A DNA stretch of 63,336 nt, the filler included. It is 16 parts of 16 records of this genome, joined end to end, with 100 filler letters (N's around TTAATTAATTAA, not from the genome) between each part and the next. Parts side by side here need not be neighbours in the genome. Positions count along the whole stretch, not along the records: positions 49,216 to 51,853 come from SRR16133337_50827; 15 more parts are not named here. The stretch is one strand, 5' to 3'. Shown here piece after piece: positions 1,507-51,853 of this stretch. The notes beneath the pieces were generated by a model. That model was not told the origin of the DNA, did no database searches, and was given only the letters and a program-made list of their open reading frames with translations. The first letter of the stretch is position 1. Every line of letters begins with the position of its first letter. Made by a program: the position numbers and the translations under genes.

Positions 1507-4500
1507 CTATACGGTTAATTCTTCTACTATTTGCTCTTCTGTCTCCAAACGTTTTAAAGCACGTTTATACTCAATAGGCATCACTTTTACAAAGTTGCTC
1601 AAACTCGTATCCCAATCGCTTAATAATTCAGTACCTCTATTACTATTCGTATAAAGTACATGTTTCTCAATTAATTCTTTTAAACCAGCGGTTTCTTCTG
1701 CTTCCATAGGTTCAAATTCGATCGATTCTGTATTGCACAATCCGTTGGTGAATTTGTCTTCTGGATCGTAGATATAAGCAATACCACCACTCATACCTGC
1801 GGCAAAGTTTCTTCCTGTATTCCCCAAAACAATAACTTTACCTCCCGTCATGTATTCACAACAATGATCTCCAACCCCTTCAACAACTGTTGTCACTCCA
1901 GAGTTACGAACAGCAAAACGTTCTCCTGCAATCCCATTTATATAGACTTCACCTGCTACAGCCCCAAACAAACAAACGTTTCCAACAATAATATTGTCTT
2001 CTGCTATAAAAGTTGCTTTGGCGGGTTTCTTTACAATTAGCTTTGCTCCAGACAATCCTTTTCCTAAATAATCATTGGTATTTCCTGCCACTGTAAATGT
2101 CAGTCCATGTGTTCCAAAAGCTCCGAAACTTTGCCCCGCAGACCCCGTAAATTTAATATTTAGTGTGTCTTCTGGCAATCCAGAGTGACCATATATTTTA
2201 GAAATTTCATTACTTACAATGGCCCCAACAGAACGATCTGTATTGTGAATAGGATATTCTAATGTCATTTGCTCTTTTCTCTGCAAAGCAGGGGGTGCAT
2301 CTTTTAAAATTTGGAAATCGATCACATTCTCTAAACCGTGCTCTTGTTTTTCAGTATTCTTAACAGGCATATTACTGTATTGAGCAGGTCTGTGTAAAAT
2401 TGCTGATAAATCCAATCCTTTTGCTTTGTAATGTGTAATCGTCTTGTTCGCATTTATTTTATGTGTTTGACCCACCATTTCACCCAAAGTTCTAAATCCT
2501 AGTTCTGCCATAATAGCTCTCAATTCTTCTGCAATATAGAAGAAGAAATTAATGACATGTTCTGGGGTTCCTTTAAAGTTCTTACGTAATGTTTTGTCTT
2601 GTGTTGCGATTCCAACAGGACAGGTATTTAAATGGCATTTACGCATCATAATACAACCCGAAGCTACTAAGGGAGCTGTTGCGAAACCAAATTCCTCAGC
2701 ACCTAATAAAGCGGCGATGGCCACATCACGACCTGTTTTTAACTGACCATCACATTCTACAACAATTCTACTTCTAAGATTATTTAAGACCAATGTTTGT
2801 TGGGCTTCCGCCAATCCCAGTTCCCAGGGAAGCCCCGCGTGTTTTAAGGAGGTTAAAGGAGAAGCTCCTGTACCTCCATCATAGCCAGAAATCAAAACTA
2901 CATCTGCTTTTGCTTTTGAAACTCCGGCAGCAATGGTACCTACACCGACTTCTGAAACTAATTTCACATTGATACGAGCTTCTCTATTGGCATTTTTCAA
3001 GTCATAAATCAATTGTGCTAAATCTTCAATGGAATAAATATCGTGATGTGGAGGTGGTGAAATTAATCCTACAAAAGGAGTAGAATTACGTGCCGATGCA
3101 ATCCAAGGCAATACTTTTTCACCTGGTAATTGTCCCCCTTCCCCAGGTTTTGCACCCTGAGCCATTTTAATTTGAATTTCTTTGGCGTTGGACAAATAGT
3201 GTGAGGTGACTCCAAAACGCCCAGAGGCCACTTGTTTGATGGCAGAGTTTCTACTGTCACCGTTGATATCTGGTTGAAAACGTTTTCTGTCTTCTCCTCC
3301 TTCACCAGAATTGGATTTACCTCCGATACGGTTCATGGCAATGGCTAAGTTTTCATGTGCTTCTCTTGAAATAGATCCGTAAGACATGGCACCTGTTTTA
3401 AAACGTTTTACAATTTCTGTCCAGGGTTCTACTTCCTCTAACGGAATGGGATCTAAATTATCGAACTCAAACAAACCACGAATCGTCATTAAGTTTGTAG
3501 ACTGTTCGTTCACCGTTTTTGCGTATCTATCATAACTGGCTTGATCGCTCAATCTAACGGCTTGTTGTAATTTTGCGACCGTTGTCGGATTAAACATATG
3601 TCTTTCTCCGTTACGTCTCCACCTATAGTCACCACCAATATTCAAGCCTAGTCTATTTTTGATCAGGGTATCAGGATAGGCATATTTATATCTTTCGTTG
3701 ATTTCTTTTTCAATTTCATACAAACCAATTCCTTCAATTCTTGAAGCGGTGTATGGGAAATATTTTTCGACAAACTTAGAATTGAATCCAACGATTTCAA
3801 AAATTTGAGAACCTCTGTATGAATGTAGTGTGGAGATTCCTATTTTATTCATCACTTTTAAGATTCCTTTTCCAATGGCTTTGTTAAAGTTGTCTACTGC
3901 TTTCTGTTCATCCATGCCTGTAATAAAACCTTCTTGAACCTGTATTCTGATAATTTCATTGACCATATAAGGATTGATCGCACTTGCACCGTACCCAAAT
4001 AAGGTTGCAAAATGATGCGGTTCACGTGGTTCCGCAGATTCGATAATGATATCGAAGGCAGAACGCTTCCGCAAACGGTTCATCTGATGATGTACATAGG
4101 AACAGGCTAATAAAGATGGAATCGGAGCAAACTGCTTGTTAACACCTCTATCGGATAAGATGATGATGTTGATTCCTCTTTCAATCGCTTTTGTTATTTG
4201 TAGGATGACCTTTTCCAAAGCATCTTCCAATCCGTTGAGTCCTCTTATTTTAGGATATAATATTTCAATGGTTTCTGCTTTAAAATTGTCTATCGAAATA
4301 TTTCTGATTTTTTCTAAATCCTTATTAGAGATCACTGGATTTTGAATTCTCAATTTTCGACATTGTTTTTTTGAAATGTCAAAGATATTTCTGTCTTGAC
4401 CTAATGCCAAGCTAATATCGGTTACAATTTCTTCACGGATACCATCTAAAGGTGGATTGGTAACTTGTGCAAATAGTTGTTTAAAGTAGTTTGAAATCAG

Positions 4501-6018
4501 CTGAGGCCTGTCAGACAATACTGCCAAAGGAGTATCGGTTCCCATAGCCCCTAATGCTTCTTTTCCAGTCTGTGCCATCGGGGTAATTACTTCTTGAATG
4601 TCTTCAATGGTATAGTTGAACAAGCGTTGTCTTGTTTTTACATCAATTGTTTCTATTTGGCAAACTTCTTCGTTATAAGGCACGTCTTTTAAGTGCAATC
4701 TATATTCTTTTAGCCATTTTTTATAAGGTCTTTCAGAAACGATTTTACTTTTGATTTCTTCATCCTTGACAATACGACCTTCGTTCATATCTACCAAAAA
4801 CATTTTTCCGGGTTCTAATCTGCCATGACTTTCAACATCTTCAGCGGCAATTTCTACAACGCCAATTTCAGAGGCCATAATTAGTTTTCCACTTTTGGTA
4901 ACGGTATATCGAGAGGGTCTTAAACCATTACGATCTAATAAAGCACCTATATAATCTCCATCTGTAAAGGGAATAGAAGCAGGTCCGTCCCAAGGTTCCA
5001 TAATACAGGCATTGTATTCGTAGAAGGCTTTTCTTTCTTCAGATAGGGTGGCGTGTTTTTCCCATGCTTCTGGAATCATCATCATCATCACTTCTGGTAA
5101 AGATCTTCCTGTATGCAGTAACAATTCGACAACCATATCCATAGAAGCCGAATCTGATTTCTCTGGTAAAATGATGGGAAATAGTTTGTCTATTTGCGAT
5201 CCAAAAATAGCACTTTTCATGATTTCTTCTCGAACACGCATTCTACTGACATTACCCCGTAAGGTGTTGATTTCTCCATTTTGACAGATATATCTAAAGG
5301 GTTGTGCCAATTCCCATGCAGGCATTGTATTCGTGGAGAAACGCTGGTGTACCAATGCCAAACGGGTTACCAAGTCTGTTTGTTGTAAATCTGTATAGTA
5401 AGAACCAATAGCTTCAGGCATTATTATGCCTTTATAAATCAACGTTGTAATTGACAGACTGGATACATAAAAATAGGCGTTTTCCGACATTTTGGAAGCC
5501 GCAATCGTGTGTTCCGTAATCTTACGAGCCATGTATAATTTGGCTTTAAAAAGAGTCTCGTCGATAGTTGCTGTCTTACCAATAAAAACTTGTTCTATGT
5601 TGGGTTCAGAAGCCAAAGCGATTTCTCCTAATTGAAAAGAATCTACAGGAACTTCTCTCCATCCTAAAATAGACAATCCTTGTGTTCTAATTTCTTTTTC
5701 GAAAGTTTTTTTACAATATTGGTATTGGTTCGTATGTTTTGGTAAAAATACCATTCCCACAGCATATTCTCTTTGTGTAGGAATCTCAAAATCGCAGACT
5801 CTGGTGAAATATTCATGAGGAATATCAATCAAAAGACCTGCTCCATCGCCTGTTTTTCCATCAGAACTTACCCCTCCACGGTGTTCTAGTTTTATAAGGA
5901 TTTCTAAAGCGTCGTGAATGATTTGATTCGTTTTTTCTCCCTTAAGGTTACAAATAAACCCTGCACCACAGTTTTCGTGTTCAAATTCGGGTATATATAG
6001 TCCTTGTTTTGCTATCAT
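1507..6018 (-). CDS. gltB: glutamate synthase large (alpha) subunit
   Basis: N-terminal EHENCGAGF (Ntn Cys), [45 protein letters not shown] 3Fe-4S motif, C-terminal GXGXG domain; 1503 aa. Confidence 0.98.
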
Positions 6019-7322: not shown

Positions 7323-9068
7323 ATGGCAATATTTACATTTGTAGAATCTGCAACAATCGGTACTGTTTTTAGTGTTGATACGGCAACAATTATTGTAAAA
7401 GTTGATGAATTGGACAAACTTCGTAAACTTCAAGTAAATCATTTAATTGCTGTAAAAAGTTCAAAAGCAGGTCAACATTTAATTGGAATAATAAATAGAA
7501 TTACAAGAAAAGTTTCAGACGAAGAAAATTCTGTTACCGAAAATTTAGGAATGTCGAATTTCTTACTCACAGAGAACATTTTAAAAGTAAACTTAATTGG
7601 TACTTTAATTGACAAACACGGAGAAAAGGAAAATGTATTTAAACGTACTTTAGATACAGTACCAGAGATTGAAGCAAAATGTTTCCCTATAGATGGAGAA
7701 AACATTACTAAATTTATGCGTACAATATCTTCACAAGAAAACTATGACGTCCCACTTTCATTAGGAAAGTACTCAATTGATGAAAATGCAGAAGCATTTT
7801 TAGATGGAGATAAACTTTTTCAAAGACACGCAGTAATTGTAGGCAGTACAGGTTCGGGTAAATCATGGTGTGTTGCCAAATTAGTTGAACAGATAGCAAA
7901 ACTACCAATGGCTAATTCACTTCTATTTGATATACACGGAGAATATAGCGGAGAAGGTTTTAAAGCTGACGGAATTCAACATTTGAAAATTGCAAATCCA
8001 TCAGATTTAGGTAAAAAAGGAAATCTTGAAAACAATGTTCTAATGCTTCCTTACTGGCTTCTGACTTATGAAGAAATGTTAGCAATGCTATTAGATAGAA
8101 GTGACAGTAACGCTCCTAATCAAGCAATGATTTTTTCCAAAACAGTTTTTAAAGAAAAAGTTAAATTTTTAGAAAGTATAGGAGATACTACCTTTAAAGA
8201 TAGTATCACAATTGACAGTCCTATTCCATATAGAATGAAAAATGTCCTAAAAGTCATTAAAGAATTGGATGGTGAAATGATAGAGGGTTCAACTAGTAAA
8301 GGAAAACAAGGACCCTTCTTTGGAAAACTAACTCGTTTTATTCAAAGATTAGAAGCTAAAAGTGAAGACAAAAGACTTGGTTTTATGTTTCAAGTAACAG
8401 ATGATGAACTTGAAATTGATTGGATGAATAAATTATGTAATTCATTAATGCAAGGTTCCAGTAATAATGACAAAAAAGCTGGTGTAAAGGTTATTGACTT
8501 TTCTGAGGTTCCATCTGATGTTCTGCCATTAGTCATTGGATTAGTTGCAAGAATCGTTTTCACAGTTCAACAATGGACTGCAAACGATAAAAGACACCCA
8601 ATTTGTTTATTATGTGATGAAGCTCATTTATATATCCCAGAAAGAACAATCCAAGATTCTGCTTCTGAATTAGGGCTAAAGAATTTTGAAAGAATTGCGA
8701 AAGAAGGCAGAAAATATGGAGTTAGCTTAACTGTTATAAGCCAACGACCAGCAGAAGTAAACAGAACAGTTCTTAGTCAATGTAACAATTTTATTTCATT
8801 AAGATTATCAAATGCAGAAGACCAAGCTGTAATCAAAAGATTGCTTCCTGATAATCTTTCAGGTTTAACTGATGTACTTCCAATACTTGATATTGGAGAA
8901 GCATTAATAGTTGGTGATTCTTCTCTTTTACCTACGAGAGTAATTATAGATGAACCGACAATTAAACCACAAAGTGCAACAATAAAATTTTGGGAGGAAT
9001 GGAGTAATGAAAAGGCTGAACAAGATATATCAAATGCCGTAATTGGATTAAGAAAGCAATCGAAATAA
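7323..9068 (+). CDS. herA: HerA/FtsK-family (DUF87) ATPase/DNA translocase, Sir2-HerA defence partner
   Basis: N-terminal HAS-barrel-like region, Walker A GSTGSGKS, DIHGEY, Walker B LLCDEAH, arginine-finger KEGRKYG, SQRP motif. Confidence 0.9.
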   Translation: MAIFTFVESATIGTVFSVDTATIIVKVDELDKLRKLQVNHLIAVKSSKAGQHLIGIINRITRKVSDEENSVTENLGMSNFLLTENILKVNLIGTLIDKHGEKENVFKRTLDTVPEIEAKCFPIDGENITKFMRTISSQENYDVPLSLGKYSIDENAEAFLDGDKLFQRHAVIVGSTGSGKSWCVAKLVEQIAKLPMANSLLFDIHGEYSGEGFKADGIQHLKIANPSDLGKKGNLENNVLMLPYWLLTYEEMLAMLLDRSDSNAPNQAMIFSKTVFKEKVKFLESIGDTTFKDSITIDSPIPYRMKNVLKVIKELDGEMIEGSTSKGKQGPFFGKLTRFIQRLEAKSEDKRLGFMFQVTDDELEIDWMNKLCNSLMQGSSNNDKKAGVKVIDFSEVPSDVLPLVIGLVARIVFTVQQWTANDKRHPICLLCDEAHLYIPERTIQDSASELGLKNFERIAKEGRKYGVSLTVISQRPAEVNRTVLSQCNNFISLRLSNAEDQAVIKRLLPDNLSGLTDVLPILDIGEALIVGDSSLLPTRVIIDEPTIKPQSATIKFWEEWSNEKAEQDISNAVIGLRKQSK

Positions 9069-12866: not shown

Positions 12867-15800
12867 TATGTGAACATTGTAATTCAAGTATCGCTTCACT
12901 TACTCTCGAATATGTCGGTGATTTTGATCCAGCGCATATCCTCATCACTCAAGGAATGGCTGTTTTAATTGATGACGTTGTTTCACCCAATCAAATCATT
13001 AAAATTCCGCCAACCACTACGCCACCAGCCGCTACAACACCGCCACTTGAAAGTTTATCTCCGAGTTTGAGCATATACATTTCCGATAATGATTTATTTA
13101 CGAATGCCGAGCAGATTGTAATTATCACTGAATGTGATGCGGTTGGTTCTGATGACGATGTTTTAGTATTTGATGTTTTTGGTGATTTTGTTGTTTTGGA
13201 AGGAATGACTGTTGATGGAGAAAGGTTGTGTGAAAGACCAACACCAGGACCAACACCAGGTATGTGTTATATTTGCACATTACATGTCATCCTTTGCGTG
13301 ATAAAAAAACAAAACAAATTTCGCAGTCATGTTGTGTTAAAAATGGATTCATCCATTTATATTTTCCGCATTCAGAGAAATAATCTTGATTTTTGCGTTT
13401 TATTTTGAGTTACACGCCAGAAATTCACGTCATATGAAACACCTGACTTTCGTATTCCACTTTAAACATACTCAAGAAAAAAACGGGTGGATAAACGGTT
13501 GAAATGTGTGACTCGCTAAACAGTTACATGCGCTACTCTTGTTTATTTTTGGAAAGTCATAACTTCAAGCGCGAGTTAGGAAGATGGGAATTTAGGTGTG
13601 TAATTTGATATTTTGATTTTTACAGAAAACGCTACATTATTCATGTTGTTTTCGTCATCTTTTTTTAAAAAAAAATTGTTTTCCCAGAAAACCAACCGAT
13701 TTCACACTTGGACAAACAAAAACACTTTTCTCTACACAAATGTGTACAATACGACGTACCCCTTCGGTATACATAATCATAGTACATGAAAAAATGTTGA
13801 GTTCTATCCATATGTGGGTTCATATTTTCTTAATGATTGTTTAGTGATAACAGAAGCACCCACATCTCCTAGTTCAGGATCCACACCACAATGCTGTAAC
13901 ATTCAGTTGCTTGGAGGTGCAGATCTATTTTTCACAGGAGTATACACTGTGAACAATACTATTTTATTTAATAATAGAAGTTCTTACAAAAATGAAGGTC
14001 TAGGACTGCATATGTATTATCTTTCCCCAGATCCTCAAATTTGGACAATTGGATCGTTTGTTGGCGATGAATCGAATATTTTGGCATTTTCTGAAGATAA
14101 TTCGACATGCGCTGAGGAAGATGACTCAATGGTTTGGTTTGTTTGGAATTTTACGGCTCAGTCATTTTTTATTGATAATAGTATTAGAATGAATTGTGGT
14201 ACGTATCTGTTGACAAACGGCGTGAAAAAGAGCCTGAAACACATTTTTCCGGCGAATTACTCTAAATTTCTGTGTCGAGTCACCCCATCCTGAAAGACAA
14301 AAATTATTGTTCTATGAAAATATCAGAAGTTTTCAAAGTGGGATGCAGTATGTTTTTTATTTATTTCGTTTTTGAAAATAAATGCGTTTCAAAATTTGTA
14401 TACATGCTTTTTATTGAGATTAAATCCCGTTATTGTCTAACATCCAGAAATTCATATCTCGTTTTTTGGCTCTTGTTTGAAGACGAAATGTAATTTTGTA
14501 AATGAATTTGTCGAATTAATGCACTTCCTGTAATATAATATGAAAAACTACCGTACCAGTGACCATTCTTGGTATTGCATTTTGCTTGTTCGTTCATGTG
14601 GGATTCCGAGCGATAAACATCAGATACAATGTTAAAAATATCTCCAGGTGGAGAAATTATTACTGTCATTTTCAGCGTTATTCGCAAAGATATCCCTTGG
14701 CCACAAATTCAGTCTAGAAGTGTAAAAATTCAAAAACAATATGACAAAACATGTTTCAGGCATGCAGTTGATTATGCATTTATTTATTTATTACATTTGT
14801 ATTATTTACCTAAAAATTTAGAAGTTTGAAGAAATGAGAATTTTACACTTCCTGAGGGGAAATGGAGTTGTGAGGAGTATGTGAGGGAGTGTGGAGTGGG
14901 AAAGGGACGCTACGACTCGACAGAATACAGTCGTCTGGGCATGTAATTCATTTTCTGTTTTTGTTTTAGTTTGTGAAGCATGTAACTCGAGTTTGACATC
15001 TCTGACTGTTCAATACTTTCTCGATCGTACACCGGCATACCTTCTCGCCACACAAGGACAAACTCCACTCATAAATAAACAAATAAATGTATCCGAAATC
15101 ATCACAATTGACGCAAATGATTTTAATATGGACACTCTTGCACCAAGTATCGCATTTTTTGTCGCTCAAAATTCGCAATTTGATGACGCATTGCGCGTGG
15201 TTGTACCAACAAATTGCGACACTGAAATATTTATTTCTGATGAATTTAATTTTTTGCGAATTTTGGACGGCGTATCAGAAGGAGGAGGAACTATTTGTCC
15301 GAAACCGACAGCACAACCGACTTTTATGCCAACACCAATTGTGACTGCAATGCCGACAGCGCCCAATGATTGCGGTGAGTAGTAATAGTTTAGTATTTTA
15401 GATTTCATATTTTTGGGGATATCAATACAAAAACATGAAATCTCTGTTCGATGTCTAATCTCTCTTCGATCTCGAGTTGTAGGACCGTCGAGAACGTGTT
15501 TTTTGGATTCTTTAAAACCAGAGATGTGGTAGTGTGTAAAGCGAGAACGCGGGATTTTGGTTTGAGTAACATCCGGGTTGTGTGTATGGCACTGTTATCG
15601 CCATTCACAAAAACATGTTTTGTTTTTGAAACAAAATCCTATATTGTTTTTGAAAATGGTCCTCGCGTATTTATTCAATAATTTGTATACTTTTTACAGA
15701 GCAGAAAGTACAACAACAAACGTTAACGGTTGTTATATAAGTCCTGCAGTTGGTGAACTTTTGCAATTTTCTTTGACAATATTAGCCACTTGGCAGAGAA

Positions 15801-48992: not shown

Positions 48993-49246
48993 GTTTTTGA
49001 AGGTTTAAAATTCAGAGGGTAAAAATAAGCAAAGATTTTTAGAAATAGGAAGATAGAAATATAGAGAACAAAAAAGGATCAACGTTATATTCCGCCTGGT
49101 TAGAAACCCGAAAATNNNNNNNNNNNNNNNNNNNNNNNNNNNNNNNNNNNNNNNNNNNNTTAATTAATTAANNNNNNNNNNNNNNNNNNNNNNNNNNNNN
49201 NNNNNNNNNNNNNNNCTAACTTCGTTAAAATTTAAAACCATAGCTT

Positions 49247-49433
49247 GGGCTATGGTTAGTACGGGAATTAAAAGTACAAAACTTTCGATTTACCACAGAG
49301 CCAAATCTGTGATTTGGTATTTACCTTTTTTATATTCCTAAATGCCAGATCGCAGATTTGGCGGGACTTGCAAATAGGTAGAACCTTTCGTAATCCACCA
49401 AACAACGATGAGCTATACATCTTATTATCCAAA
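49247..49433. repeat. degenerate attC-like hairpin element downstream of cassette 2
   Basis: GGGCTATGGTTAGT arm resembles that of the 49737 element; inner 24-bp stem 49300-49323/49339-49362 has only G.T wobbles on the + strand; ends in ATTATCCAAA. Confidence 0.55.
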
Positions 49434-49436
49434 GTT

Positions 49437-49727
49437 TCACATATGACCACATACATCATTAAGCCAACCTTTTCGTTGTGCAATTGAATATGCACTTGAA
49501 GATTTCCTTGCAAATTCGGTTCTCAGTGCTTCTTCTATAATTTTTGCCTTGGTTCATTTCGGTAAATTCTTCTTATGACGCATGTGTTTGCAAACTTCTT
49601 CAAGCCACTTATTTTTGATAGCAATTGCATATGCCTTTGATTTTAACCTGAATTCTTTTTTTGTTTTAAATCTCAGGGCTTCCTCAATTACTTTCTCCTT
49701 TGTCCAATAGCCTGCTGAATGTCTCAT
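49437..49727 (-). pseudogene. unannotated two-repeat protein (WTKEK..EEA...EF...AY..A....WL..VC.HM x2) interrupted by an in-frame TGA at codon 58
   Basis: Manual translation: MRHSAGYWTKEKVIEEALRFKTKKEFRLKSKAYAIAIKNKWLEEVCKHMRHKKNLPK*TKAKIIEEALRTEFARKSSSAYSIAQRKGWLNDVCGHM*; the internal stop (49554-49556) falls exactly at the repeat's Trp. Confidence 0.75.
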
Positions 49728-49736
49728 TTAAATTTT

Positions 49737-49866
49737 GGATAACGGTTAGGCTATGGCTAGTAATGGGTTTGAAAACACTAGCTTTCGAAATTAGCTATAT
49801 TTGATTAACAGCACTAACTTTTGATTTTGCAACGAAGCCCTTATTAGCTATAGTCATTGTTACCTG
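49737..49866. repeat. complete attC-like recombination hairpin between cassettes (about 130 bp)
   Basis: GGATAAC...GTTACCTG core boxes, unpaired spacer, 20-bp stem 49750-49770/49835-49854 with four G.T pairs and one extrahelical T (49764) on the + strand. Confidence 0.7.
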
Positions 49867-50871
49867 TTGGCTTTTCCTGTTTTTAGATAATTTATTTTGT
49901 ATTCGTTTATTTCTGATTAAAATCCTAAAATATGGGCATTTTCCATTTATCGACAAATCTTTTTCATCATTTCCTTTTCTGAATTTAATTATTTCAAACT
50001 GTTCGGGATTGAATTTGTGTAGAAATGTAATAGGCACACCCATAAAACTACTGTAGTCTAATGGAATATCTTTAGTTTTATTAACGTTAATACCATCGTA
50101 ATTGTCATATTTAGGATATTCAATTTCGTTTCCAAGGTATTTTTTTGTGAGAGTAATATCTTCGTGTCGTTTAGAAGTGTCTAAATTAGTTAACCATAAA
50201 CAGTTGTTTGGTGAAACTATTCTGTTTCCTAGATCGTCAATTCGAGTTTCTGTTCCATACAATTCATAGTGTTCAGGTACAATAAAACCTGAAATACCTC
50301 TACCAAGATTTATTCCTAACCAAGCTCTATTTCCTTTAATAAGCTTAAATATTTCTTTATACGTGATTACATTAATGTTGCCAATTATCAAAAATTTCTT
50401 GTCGTATTTAACTAATTGAGCTACATATTCCCTGAATAATGAAAATGGGGGATTAGTAATTACAATATCTGATTGCTTTAATAATTCGATGCTTTCAGGA
50501 TTACGAAAATCGCCATCACTTTTAAAATGAACAATATCATTTGAATTTGGTTTGTCTTTTTCTCCTTCTTTACCTGTATATTCAAAGAAAAAGCCATTTT
50601 CAGTTTCTTCTGTATTAAATAAGTCATTCTTTTGTTCTTGATAGCAAGCAGCAATCAATTTTTTAAGACCTAATTCATTGAAATTAGATGCAAAATATTT
50701 AAAAAAATTACTAATACGAGCATCATCGCAATTACAAAAAACTACCTTATCTTTAAAATGGTTTTTATAATGTTGTAATTCACTTTCTATATCTGAAAGC
50801 TGTGTATAAAACTCATCATTTTTGTTTTGTTTTGCTTTAGTAAGCAAAGAGTGCTTTACTTTTCTTGCCAT
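49795..50871 (-). CDS. ecoRIM: EcoRI-family N6-adenine DNA methyltransferase
   Basis: AKQNKNDEFYTQ, VFCNCDD, SNFFKYF, DIVITNPPFSLFREY, MGVPITF, PYFRILI closely follow M.EcoRI; C-terminal tail runs into the attC-like site. Confidence 0.93.
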   Translation of the reverse strand: MARKVKHSLLTKAKQNKNDEFYTQLSDIESELQHYKNHFKDKVVFCNCDDARISNFFKYFASNFNELGLKKLIAACYQEQKNDLFNTEETENGFFFEYTGKEGEKDKPNSNDIVHFKSDGDFRNPESIELLKQSDIVITNPPFSLFREYVAQLVKYDKKFLIIGNINVITYKEIFKLIKGNRAWLGINLGRGISGFIVPEHYELYGTETRIDDLGNRIVSPNNCLWLTNLDTSKRHEDITLTKKYLGNEIEYPKYDNYDGINVNKTKDIPLDYSSFMGVPITFLHKFNPEQFEIIKFRKGNDEKDLSINGKCPYFRILIRNKRIQNKLSKNRKSQQVTMTIANKGFVAKSKVSAVNQI

Positions 50872-50877
50872 TGCTAT

Positions 50878-51714
50878 CTAATTATTTTCAGTTATTTGGT
50901 TAAATATTTCACTTCCTAAAACTTTAAGAGAGGTTCTAGAAATTTCCATCATAATATCAAACATTTTCTTTGCTTCCCATTTACCTCCATTTCCTTGTGA
51001 GTATATTGATGTCGCTTGAAGCATAATTGTTTTGTCCTTATGTTTTACAAACTTATTTTTACACAAGTTCGTGTTAATTGGCATTCCGTAATTTGCAGAT
51101 GTCAATCTGTCTAGTCTATTTAGCATTCCTGAATTGTATTCAAGTTTTACGATTCTACCATCAGGTCTTTTAATTGAGATTGTTTCTGTTAAGAAATTTG
51201 ACCCTTCTAAAAACAAGACATATGGGAAATGAGATTCAGATAACATCAAATTAGCAATCTCCGATATGTTTTTATGAGACCTTTCTATTGCATTTCCAGC
51301 AGCCATTAAATCTTGATTATTGTTTTTACCAACTAATTTTCCTTTTTCTATGTTATCGATGTCTTTTCCTTGATGTTTAGCTTCTGATACTAACACTATT
51401 CTCCAGTTGTTATCATCATCTTTGACTTCAATTACTCCTCCGTCAGGTTTAATACTTGAGTTTGATACAAAAAGAGTTAGACCTAGTTCTTTATCAACTT
51501 TCTGTAAAGCTTTGTTTATTTCTTCTTTTTTTATGCTCGTTTTGTATTGAAAAGATAATTGAGGATATTCTTTTTCAAGTTGTTCAATCACAAGATTTGA
51601 TATTTTTCCAACTGTTATATCGTGTAATTTTGCTTCATCTCCAAATATGCCAACTACGCCTTGAGACTTTTTATGTTGATTTGTTAACCTTTTTGATTGA
51701 TTCTTTTTAGACAT
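50878..51714 (-). CDS. ecoRIR: EcoRI-family type II restriction endonuclease (predicted GAATTC specificity)
   Basis: SNSSIKPDGG...EAKHQG catalytic motif, QDLMAAGNAIERSHKNISE recognition segment, LNRLDRLT; collinear with R.EcoRI over 278 aa. Confidence 0.95.
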   Translation of the reverse strand: MSKKNQSKRLTNQHKKSQGVVGIFGDEAKLHDITVGKISNLVIEQLEKEYPQLSFQYKTSIKKEEINKALQKVDKELGLTLFVSNSSIKPDGGVIEVKDDDNNWRIVLVSEAKHQGKDIDNIEKGKLVGKNNNQDLMAAGNAIERSHKNISEIANLMLSESHFPYVLFLEGSNFLTETISIKRPDGRIVKLEYNSGMLNRLDRLTSANYGMPINTNLCKNKFVKHKDKTIMLQATSIYSQGNGGKWEAKKMFDIMMEISRTSLKVLGSEIFNQITENN

Positions 51715-51786
51715 AATTATTAGCTATCAATATTTTATTTTACAAAAGCACAAAATTTGAACTGATGTTTCTGGTTTCGGTGCTTG

Positions 51787-51853
51787 CAGGTAACGTGTTT
51801 GTATATGGTTTGTTGCGTGTTTCAAGCACCTAATTTAGCAAATACAAACCGAA
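51787..51853. repeat. partial attC-like element upstream of the EcoRI cassette (cut by contig end)
   Basis: CAGGTAAC-GTGTTT-GTATATGGTTTGT has the same TAAC plus TATGGYTWGT arm layout as the 49737 and 49247 elements. Confidence 0.6.

Follow-up and report, generated by a model that had tools for sequence, protein, structure and literature searches.

The hairpin that lies antisense to the genes of a metagenome contig raises the question of whether it functions as an RNA signal or as a folded single-stranded DNA site resembling the attC sites of integrons, as was proposed by a sequence-only reading of the locus. The window, i.e. the whole stretch of 63,336 nucleotides that was analysed, is a pseudomolecule in which 16 contigs of 2-7 kb are joined by 15 linkers (across 6096-56380, each N44-TTAATTAATTAA-N44, 100 nt), and therefore genes on either side of a linker are not genomically linked. 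The contig carrying the hairpin occupies positions 49216-51853 (2.6 kb). The G+C content is 28-39% throughout the window. As the MutS protein encoded on a neighbouring contig is 83% identical to MutS of Lutibacter MAGs, the assembly can be described as Lutibacter-like and assigned to the Flavobacteriaceae. ARAGORN found no tRNA or tmRNA in the window, blastn against a phage collection returned no match, and no recombinase is present in the window.

The hairpin, designated winA, is a complete short-form attC-like element on the + strand at 49740-49862, as indicated by its sequence, its folds and its matches to the profile and covariance models of the family described below. At its base, T49740-A49741-A49742-C49743 pairs with G49859-T-T-A49862, and this R box is separated from the stem by unpaired spacers of 5 and 3 nt, GGTTA (49744-49748) and ATT (49856-49858); when the R box is parsed longer, as TAACG (49740-49744) with TGTTA (49858-49862), the spacers become GTTA and AT. 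The stem of 21 bp joins 49749-49770 to 49835-49855 (G49749..A49763 with T49841..C49855, and G49765..T49770 with A49835..C49840) and encloses a variable inner part at 49771-49834. Its only non-Watson-Crick pairs are four G.T pairs (49750.49854, 49755.49849, 49760.49844 and T49768.G49837), and T49764 on the + strand is bulged. Every detail of the geometry originally claimed for the hairpin is thus present in the sequence, and so is the attC-like architecture, in which an unpaired spacer separates the AAC...GTT base from the stem. Read with their outer bases, the two core sites are GGATAAC and GTTACCT, and the element carries ATTGT/TA, which matches the intron-target type TTGT/T.

Minimum free energy folds reproduce the stem of winA. 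With RNA parameters the + strand reaches -38.1 kcal/mol (z -4.19, none of 200 shuffles as good) and the - strand -26.2 kcal/mol (z -1.85), whereas under DNA parameters winA by itself does not fold better than shuffled sequences (+ strand -9.8 kcal/mol, z -0.18; - strand -8.7 kcal/mol, z 0.08). The comparison of both strands suggested in the sequence-only reading hence favours the + strand clearly when RNA parameters are used, but the gap shrinks to just 1.1 kcal/mol with the DNA parameters that had been called for. It is homology that identifies the hairpin as real, since an nhmmer profile built without winA finds both of its halves (E 0.0071 for model positions 2-51 and 8.1e-6 for 126-188) and the family has the same strand bias. 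winA represents a short form without positions 52-125 of the family profile and shows every family invariant, as well as two compensatory changes relative to the consensus (T-A to C-G and C-G to A-T). The covariance model CM R1 scores it at 91.5 bits, winA itself being among the seed sequences. No copy of winA was found in four Lutibacter genomes (best E 0.17).

Along the contig, read in the direction of its genes, an element (winC), a restriction-modification (R-M) pair, winA, a small ORF and a decayed element (winB) follow each other. winC, at 51791-51853 on the + strand, represents a third element, a short form of which the contig end leaves the 5' half; from AAC on, 51 of 53 bases are identical to L159:2517-2658 (score 49, compared with a maximum of 20 in 200 shuffles), and other metagenome contigs show high depth and breaks in homology at 51791-51799. 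The 63-nt piece gave no match to CM R1 and was identified by pairwise alignment. Between winC and winA lies a two-gene cassette on the - strand. Its first gene codes for an EcoRI-like restriction endonuclease (50878-51714; Pfam PF02963, E 4e-150), and the second for an EcoRI-like adenine methyltransferase (49795-50871; PF13651, E 1e-130, residues 10-321 of 358), the last ~37 codons of which lie outside the Pfam match and extend into winA. R-M relatives of ~90% identity in other metagenome contigs stop matching at 49896-49966, close to where the methylase family match ends, and at 51715, just upstream of the endonuclease start codon; since likeness is lost at these points, the conserved R-M module seems to be shorter than the cassette. 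Over the parts that they cover, the contigs of four metagenome runs gave only fragmentary R-M and element-end relatives, with no bridging contig carrying an alternative cassette junction.

On the other side of winA, a small cassette ORF (49380-49727, - strand) was recognized by direct repeats (D1, D6, D9) and by translation as two ~47-aa repeats of the pattern WTKEK..EEA...EF....AY..A.K..W......HM, and it belongs to no Pfam family. Its in-frame TGA at 49554-49556 (- strand) is aligned with the W (TGG) of the first repeat, and a nonsense mutation is its simplest explanation; a reading under genetic code 4 was rejected, since table 11 leaves long ORFs open throughout the window. The decayed long-form element winB (49243-49402, + strand; nhmmer E 5.8e-23, CM 90.4 bits) retains the 5' arm (GGCTATGGTTAGTACGGG, from 49248) and inner hairpins and has lost the AAC, the 3' arm and the GTT; no R box was found in it. 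The 24-bp stem that had been described as a neighbouring element with the same bias is real (49300-49362, + strand, 15-nt loop), its arms at 49300-49323 and 49339-49362 being 88% Watson-Crick complementary with three exceptions that read as T.G pairs. It is not a separate element, however, but the inner hairpin of winB, corresponding to helix 2 of the family (columns 73-84/125-136). With DNA parameters, the region 49225-49370 folds better on the + strand (-29.1, z -6.74) than on the - strand (-23.2, z -4.56).

Homologous elements proved to be widespread. In a blastn search of plasmids, winB matched an element (77.6% identity, E 2e-13) in an unannotated gap of a Flammeovirga kamogawensis replicon, within an array of small same-strand genes, at a locus with three to five related elements. 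A strict motif search returned 15 matches in 12 of 401 Flavobacteriaceae genomes and none in the reversed control; these copies are more than 90% alike, and their likeness ends exactly at AAC on the left and at GTT on the right. The profile built without winA revealed co-oriented arrays, with five to six long copies in each of the loci L157, L151 and L156, and the covariance model found many 130-145-nt short forms of diverse sequence. When up to 16 candidates per genome were scored with CM R1, matches occurred in at least 124 of 151 sampled Flavobacteriaceae genomes and in at least 30 of 151 sampled Bacteroidota genomes; a single genome reached at least 16 matches, and many copies lie at contig ends. 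The elements range in length from ~55 to 205 nt. Many short forms (L177:3236-3374, L150:1084-1223, L155:832-971) share an inner mini-hairpin, GGAAAATC-CGNAG-GATTTTCC, in the variable part.

The family is bounded by YAACG...TGTTR and has an unpaired 4-5/2-nt spacer and a covarying stem with two fixed G.T pairs; the left end reads YAAC-G followed by 4-5 more unpaired bases and the right end NNT-GTT-R. AAC and GTT are present in 58 of 64 elements, the remainder being intron-occupied, truncated or decayed, and the fourth R-box pair is Y-R or T.G in 50 of 57. The 5' spacer has 5 nt in 34 elements, 6 nt in 23 and 7 nt in one; the 3' spacer has 3 nt in all 58 (GTTGTT parsed). In an alignment of 26 copies, the outer 18-bp stem and the inner helix are 97.0% paired, compared with 87.0% after shuffling, and changes on both sides occur in 18 of 29 pairs, a level reached by none of 500 shuffles; slid controls are 36-50% paired. 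Very diverse sequence families keep one structure. No bulged base is conserved in the 26 copies. The bulged T49764, taken before as the extrahelical base of an attC site and expected to recur in homologues, is private to winA, the base being absent in the other 25 copies. It is moreover situated on the AAC arm, while the extrahelical bases of canonical attC sites are on the opposite arm according to the sections of PMC5027507 available to us.

The strand bias itself withstood the comparison of homologues. Over the outer stems of 64 non-overlapping elements, 893 Watson-Crick, 154 G.T, 3 A.C and 56 other pairs were counted, and DNA parameters give the + strand the greater stability in 53 of 58 elements (mean -23.0 vs -20.7; difference 2.4 kcal/mol), RNA parameters in 56 of 58 (mean difference 8.9 kcal/mol); on the strength of these counts and stabilities, the bias is conserved in the family, as had been predicted. 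It owes most to two fixed positions that every copy has inherited, G.T being fixed at stem positions 7 (55 elements) and 12 (61 elements). Stem position 8 carries A-T in 35, G.T in 15 and G-C in 8 elements, and outside positions 7, 8 and 12 the bias amounts to 23 G.T versus 3 A.C pairs. The family-wide strand difference with DNA parameters is modest. Because G.T pairs are far more stabilising in RNA, the strand bias alone would fit an RNA as well.

Within one array the elements always have one orientation, antisense to the close-packed genes, which agrees with the earlier claim that the folding strand is antisense to the cassette genes. On the GTT side, 50 of 63 elements have the stop codon of a gene-strand ORF no more than 40 nt away (median 14 nt), and on the AAC side the next ATG is at most 60 nt away in 32 of 44. 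Among array ORFs of 80 aa or longer, 52 run antisense to the folding strand and 6 run sense to it. The arrays reach ~50 kb, and 34 of 51 cassette ORFs belong to no Pfam family; those with a Pfam match include GmrSD, TIR, SUKH-1, WapI-like immunity, GNAT and redoxin proteins. An all-against-all blastn of the arrays gave no near-identical cassette in two contexts among the matches listed. The best shared cassette among them (69% identity, L151 and L173) does not allow a crossover to be mapped, and no near-identical pair of arrays differing by one cassette was found.

An independent indication of a DNA hairpin is provided by group II introns. Three copies were recognized by Rfam on the folding strand of L151 (G081:C1:795000-812000), at 893-1500, 2491-5620 and 7403-8010, each inserted at TTGT/T of an element, the two ~600-nt copies being without an ORF. 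Comparison with two empty mini elements of ~55 nt that belong to the occupied type (8273-8333 and 14844-14904) places the insertion sites at [A/T]TTGT/T right after the hairpin, antisense to the cassettes. IIC-attC introns are described in the accessible part of PMC7923331 as inserting into the attC bottom strand at TTGT/T, against the direction of cassette transcription, with the attC hairpin as part of the target. Since the introns of L151 sit at TTGT/T after the hairpin on that very strand, the preference expressed at the outset for single-stranded DNA over an RNA terminator is supported.

A Xer-like tyrosine recombinase of 376-421 aa heads many of the arrays, co-oriented with the cassettes, and carries Phage_integrase and SAM-like domains. 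With the XerA/"integron integrase" NCBIfam model (cut-off 220), one of two tested proteins passes (228.5 bits) and the other falls below (212.4 bits); with the IntI model TIGR02249 (cut-off 265), the two proteins reach 199.6 and 209 bits, in a match broken into two stretches. Comparison with IntI4 (2a3v) shows 33 residues in the recombinase against 76 in the integrase at the IntI-specific region. In five element-bearing genomes, the ORFs that best match the IntI model have 306-421 aa, and in none of the five is the cut-off exceeded. In four of them the best match has 384-421 aa and lies, in three of the four, just upstream of an element and co-oriented with the cassettes; in the fifth, G081, it is one of three adjacent ~305-aa tyrosine recombinases (G081:C1:820913-825812), which lie ~9 kb from a cassette array and look like a recombinase-in-trio element. 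Further copies of the ~305-aa type are found elsewhere in this genome. The likely partner of these sites is hence not similar to IntI1, which was previously named as a candidate for binding and recombination experiments, but a Xer-like enzyme without the IntI-specific region.

Homologues of the recombinase abound, 265 of 401 genomes having one at E<=1e-50. Within flanks of 1.5 kb, 13 of 30 recombinase loci carry 20 elements, every one of which lies downstream of the gene and in antisense orientation to it, and no elements were found in these flanks at the other 17 loci; the same polarity occurs at 11 further places in 10 genomes. An IntI family search of the Flammeovirga replicon with three copies of the element found no recombinase. 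After the stop codon of the recombinase, a perfect palindrome followed by GTT 3-9 nt further on was detected in 22 of 28 loci, compared with 2 of 560 shuffles, and may be the head site. Upstream of the recombinase gene, DNA likeness among the loci reaches ~470 nt. A conserved ~125-aa gene is divergent from the array-head recombinase in L161 (2713-3087, +) and L163 (1030-1410, -), its only Pfam match being a weak one to Prok-RING_1 (E 0.0029). For many recombinase genes the contig end is 75-250 nt away (G196:C44, G072:C16, G058:C107, G341:C16), and assemblies seem to break in repeated sequence adjoining the gene.

Taken together, winA is probably a recombination site that closes the two-gene R-M cassette in an integron-like array of a Lutibacter-like flavobacterium, a function that we infer from anatomy, covariation, context and intron targeting. 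According to the proposed mechanism, the strand antisense to the genes, i.e. the + strand of the window and the counterpart of the attC bottom strand, would fold as single-stranded DNA during replication or transfer and bring AAC and GTT together into a short R duplex beside the L duplex. This pseudo-core site might then be occupied by two recombinase monomers, with cleavage at the AAC/GTT triplet, and exchange with the head site or with another element would lead to excision or insertion of a cassette. The choice of strand could be dictated by the G.T pairs, which become C.A mismatches on the other strand, and by the asymmetry of the 5- and 3-nt spacers, rather than by extrahelical bases; this would fit a recombinase without the IntI insertion that contacts such bases. 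The wider proposition has about an even chance of being correct, namely that Flavobacteriaceae and some other Bacteroidota possess a second, IntI-independent kind of integron, in which a plain Xer-like recombinase takes up and rearranges cassettes at folded single-stranded sites, the strand being marked by two fixed G.T pairs and an asymmetric spacer in place of extrahelical bases.

Four other explanations have to be weighed against the recombination site. The elements might be MITE- or REP-like selfish repeats spread by a transposase, their intergenic position reflecting tolerated insertion and the recombinase being incidental. The copy number within one genome, the many copies at contig ends and the long terminal inverted arms are in keeping with such repeats, as are the conservation above 90% of the long form across species, with an extension to a Cytophagales replicon, and the existence of decayed or truncated copies such as winB and L001:3144-3222. 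Selfish repeats would nevertheless hardly be expected to keep one orientation per array, antisense to the genes and at tight distances from stop and start codons, or a fixed polarity towards a recombinase and a palindrome-GTT site, nor would such diverse sequences be expected to retain one structure. No target-site duplication was seen, and the flanks share the R-box consensus: the outer positions follow a GYRY/RYRC-like consensus, not RYYY/RRRY, and do not pair within the element beyond the fourth base, which is the outcome expected from crossover at the triplet. We therefore regard an origin as selfish repeats as unlikely.

It is somewhat less probable still that the hairpins act as RNA of the + strand, regulating the cassette genes in antisense or signalling processing or termination, with G.U pairs that would be a product of RNA folding. 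Invariant G.U pairs often serve recognition in RNAs, and both the fold of winA and the mean strand difference of the family are more pronounced with RNA than with DNA parameters. Rfam, which does not include the attC covariance model of IntegronFinder, gave no match at gathering score anywhere in the window, and when three related loci were searched at E<=1, only group II intron parts and chance microRNA matches were obtained, the latter being all that the elements themselves drew and lying far below gathering level. No promoter or terminator tied to an element was recognized, and a separate antisense RNA would be needed for each cassette. Conservation that ends exactly at AAC and GTT resembles a recombination-type core, and the group II intron target indicates a hairpin of DNA.

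Recombination of the sites as double-stranded DNA, with the arms serving as binding sites joined by protein bridging instead of folding, appears more improbable again. Xer-type recombinases normally act on duplex sites, and the compact palindromic head site could be a duplex dyad. The arms of the elements, though, are 20-150 nt apart, and AAC meets GTT only upon folding; covariation preserves the pairing and not the sequence of the arms, and at stem position 8 the path leading from A-T by way of G.T to G-C (35, 15 and 8 elements) bypasses A.C on just one of the strands. As for a decaying inverted repeat whose mismatches are G.T by accident, the chance of four G.T out of four on one strand is about 1 in 8 for either strand and the DNA-parameter fold of winA does not surpass shuffled sequences, but homology to a family of hundreds of covarying copies has already refuted this reading and leaves it practically no probability.

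If winA and its relatives are indeed recombination sites, the consequences would extend beyond this contig. Integrons are considered to need IntI together with its additional domain, and hardly any have been recorded by surveys of Bacteroidota, whereas a family of sites following the logic of attC occurs in at least 124 of the 151 sampled Flavobacteriaceae genomes and is tied to a recombinase without the IntI-specific domain. This domain would then not be required for the recombination of cassettes at hairpin sites, and gene capture of this type would be more widespread and mechanistically more flexible than has been thought. The recombinase-associated clusters of gut Bacteroidales known as rAID-1 would represent one branch of a phylum-wide system missed by present integron finders, and would gain a structural and mechanistic basis. 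The elements might furthermore offer a compact model of how a recombinase selects one DNA strand, and the arrays would amount to an extensive unexplored reservoir of cassette genes in marine bacteria, restriction, TIR and immunity genes among them.

The portion available to us of the description of IntegronFinder 2.0 mentions for Bacteroidota only In0 elements from earlier work and one complete integron in Salinibacter. A search of the main texts of accessible papers for integron-like arrays in Flavobacteriaceae or Bacteroidota found only the preprint on rAID-1, and no description of flavobacterial arrays or of folded, strand-biased sites. The closest described system is rAID-1, the recombinase-associated acquired interbacterial defence clusters of Bacteroidales, likened here by architecture. 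In the accessible text of the preprint (Ross et al., bioRxiv 10.1101/471110), such a cluster is recognized by a 5' XerD-like recombinase more than 44% identical to BF9343_RS08045, by at least two co-directional downstream genes with repetitive intergenic sequences, and by a G+C content of the cluster that is at most 41% and below that of the recombinase. To judge from the same text, the recombinase architecture is the same, and co-directional genes with intergenic repeats occur in the related loci; the window itself shows only the cassettes and no recombinase; the G+C value is uninformative, as the whole window lies at 28-39%. The cargo of rAID-1 contains orphan immunity genes, comparable with the SUKH-1 and WapI-like immunity proteins of the flavobacterial cassettes, which add restriction systems, TIR proteins and many proteins of unknown function. 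The two differ in that rAID-1 is a system of Bacteroidales and the present family is found in Flavobacteriaceae and one Cytophagales replicon, and in that the preprint, as far as accessible, treats the repeats as sequence motifs and describes no fold, strand bias, AAC/GTT core or intron targeting.

Relative to MITE and REP elements, the family is distinguished by co-oriented arrays, positioning on genes and the lack of target-site duplication. With group IIC-attC introns, as described in the available part of PMC7923331, the introns of L151 share insertion at TTGT/T after a hairpin, on the folding strand and opposite to cassette transcription; two of the three L151 copies differ in having ~600 nt and no ORF.

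A further comparison is with integron attC sites, as in sedentary chromosomal integrons and CALINs. Going by the accessible sections of PMC5027507, folding pairs AAC...GTT cores in both kinds of site, the R and L duplexes are set apart by an unpaired spacer, the terminal structure varies and lengths differ widely; in both the folding strand is antisense to the cassette ORFs, and the sites lie just 3' of promoterless ORFs in a single orientation. The targeting of TTGT/T by group II introns is likewise shared, to the extent covered by the available part of PMC7923331, as is, in the integron literature accessible to us, the prevalence of cassettes without known function, some carrying defence genes. 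Canonical attC sites have the core sites RYYYAAC/GTTRRRY and extrahelical bases, a G in L'' and a T 6 bp further, on the arm lying opposite to the 5'-AAC-3' of the bottom strand, and spacers of 5-6 nt on each arm (PMC5027507, in the sections available), whereas the flavobacterial family has no conserved extrahelical bases and is marked instead by two fixed G.T pairs and by spacers of 5-6 versus 3 nt. Finally, the recombinase of the flavobacterial arrays differs from the integron integrase in having no IntI-specific region, in scoring below the IntI cut-off and in being co-oriented with the cassettes directly upstream of them, and the candidate head site of the family consists of a palindrome followed by GTT.
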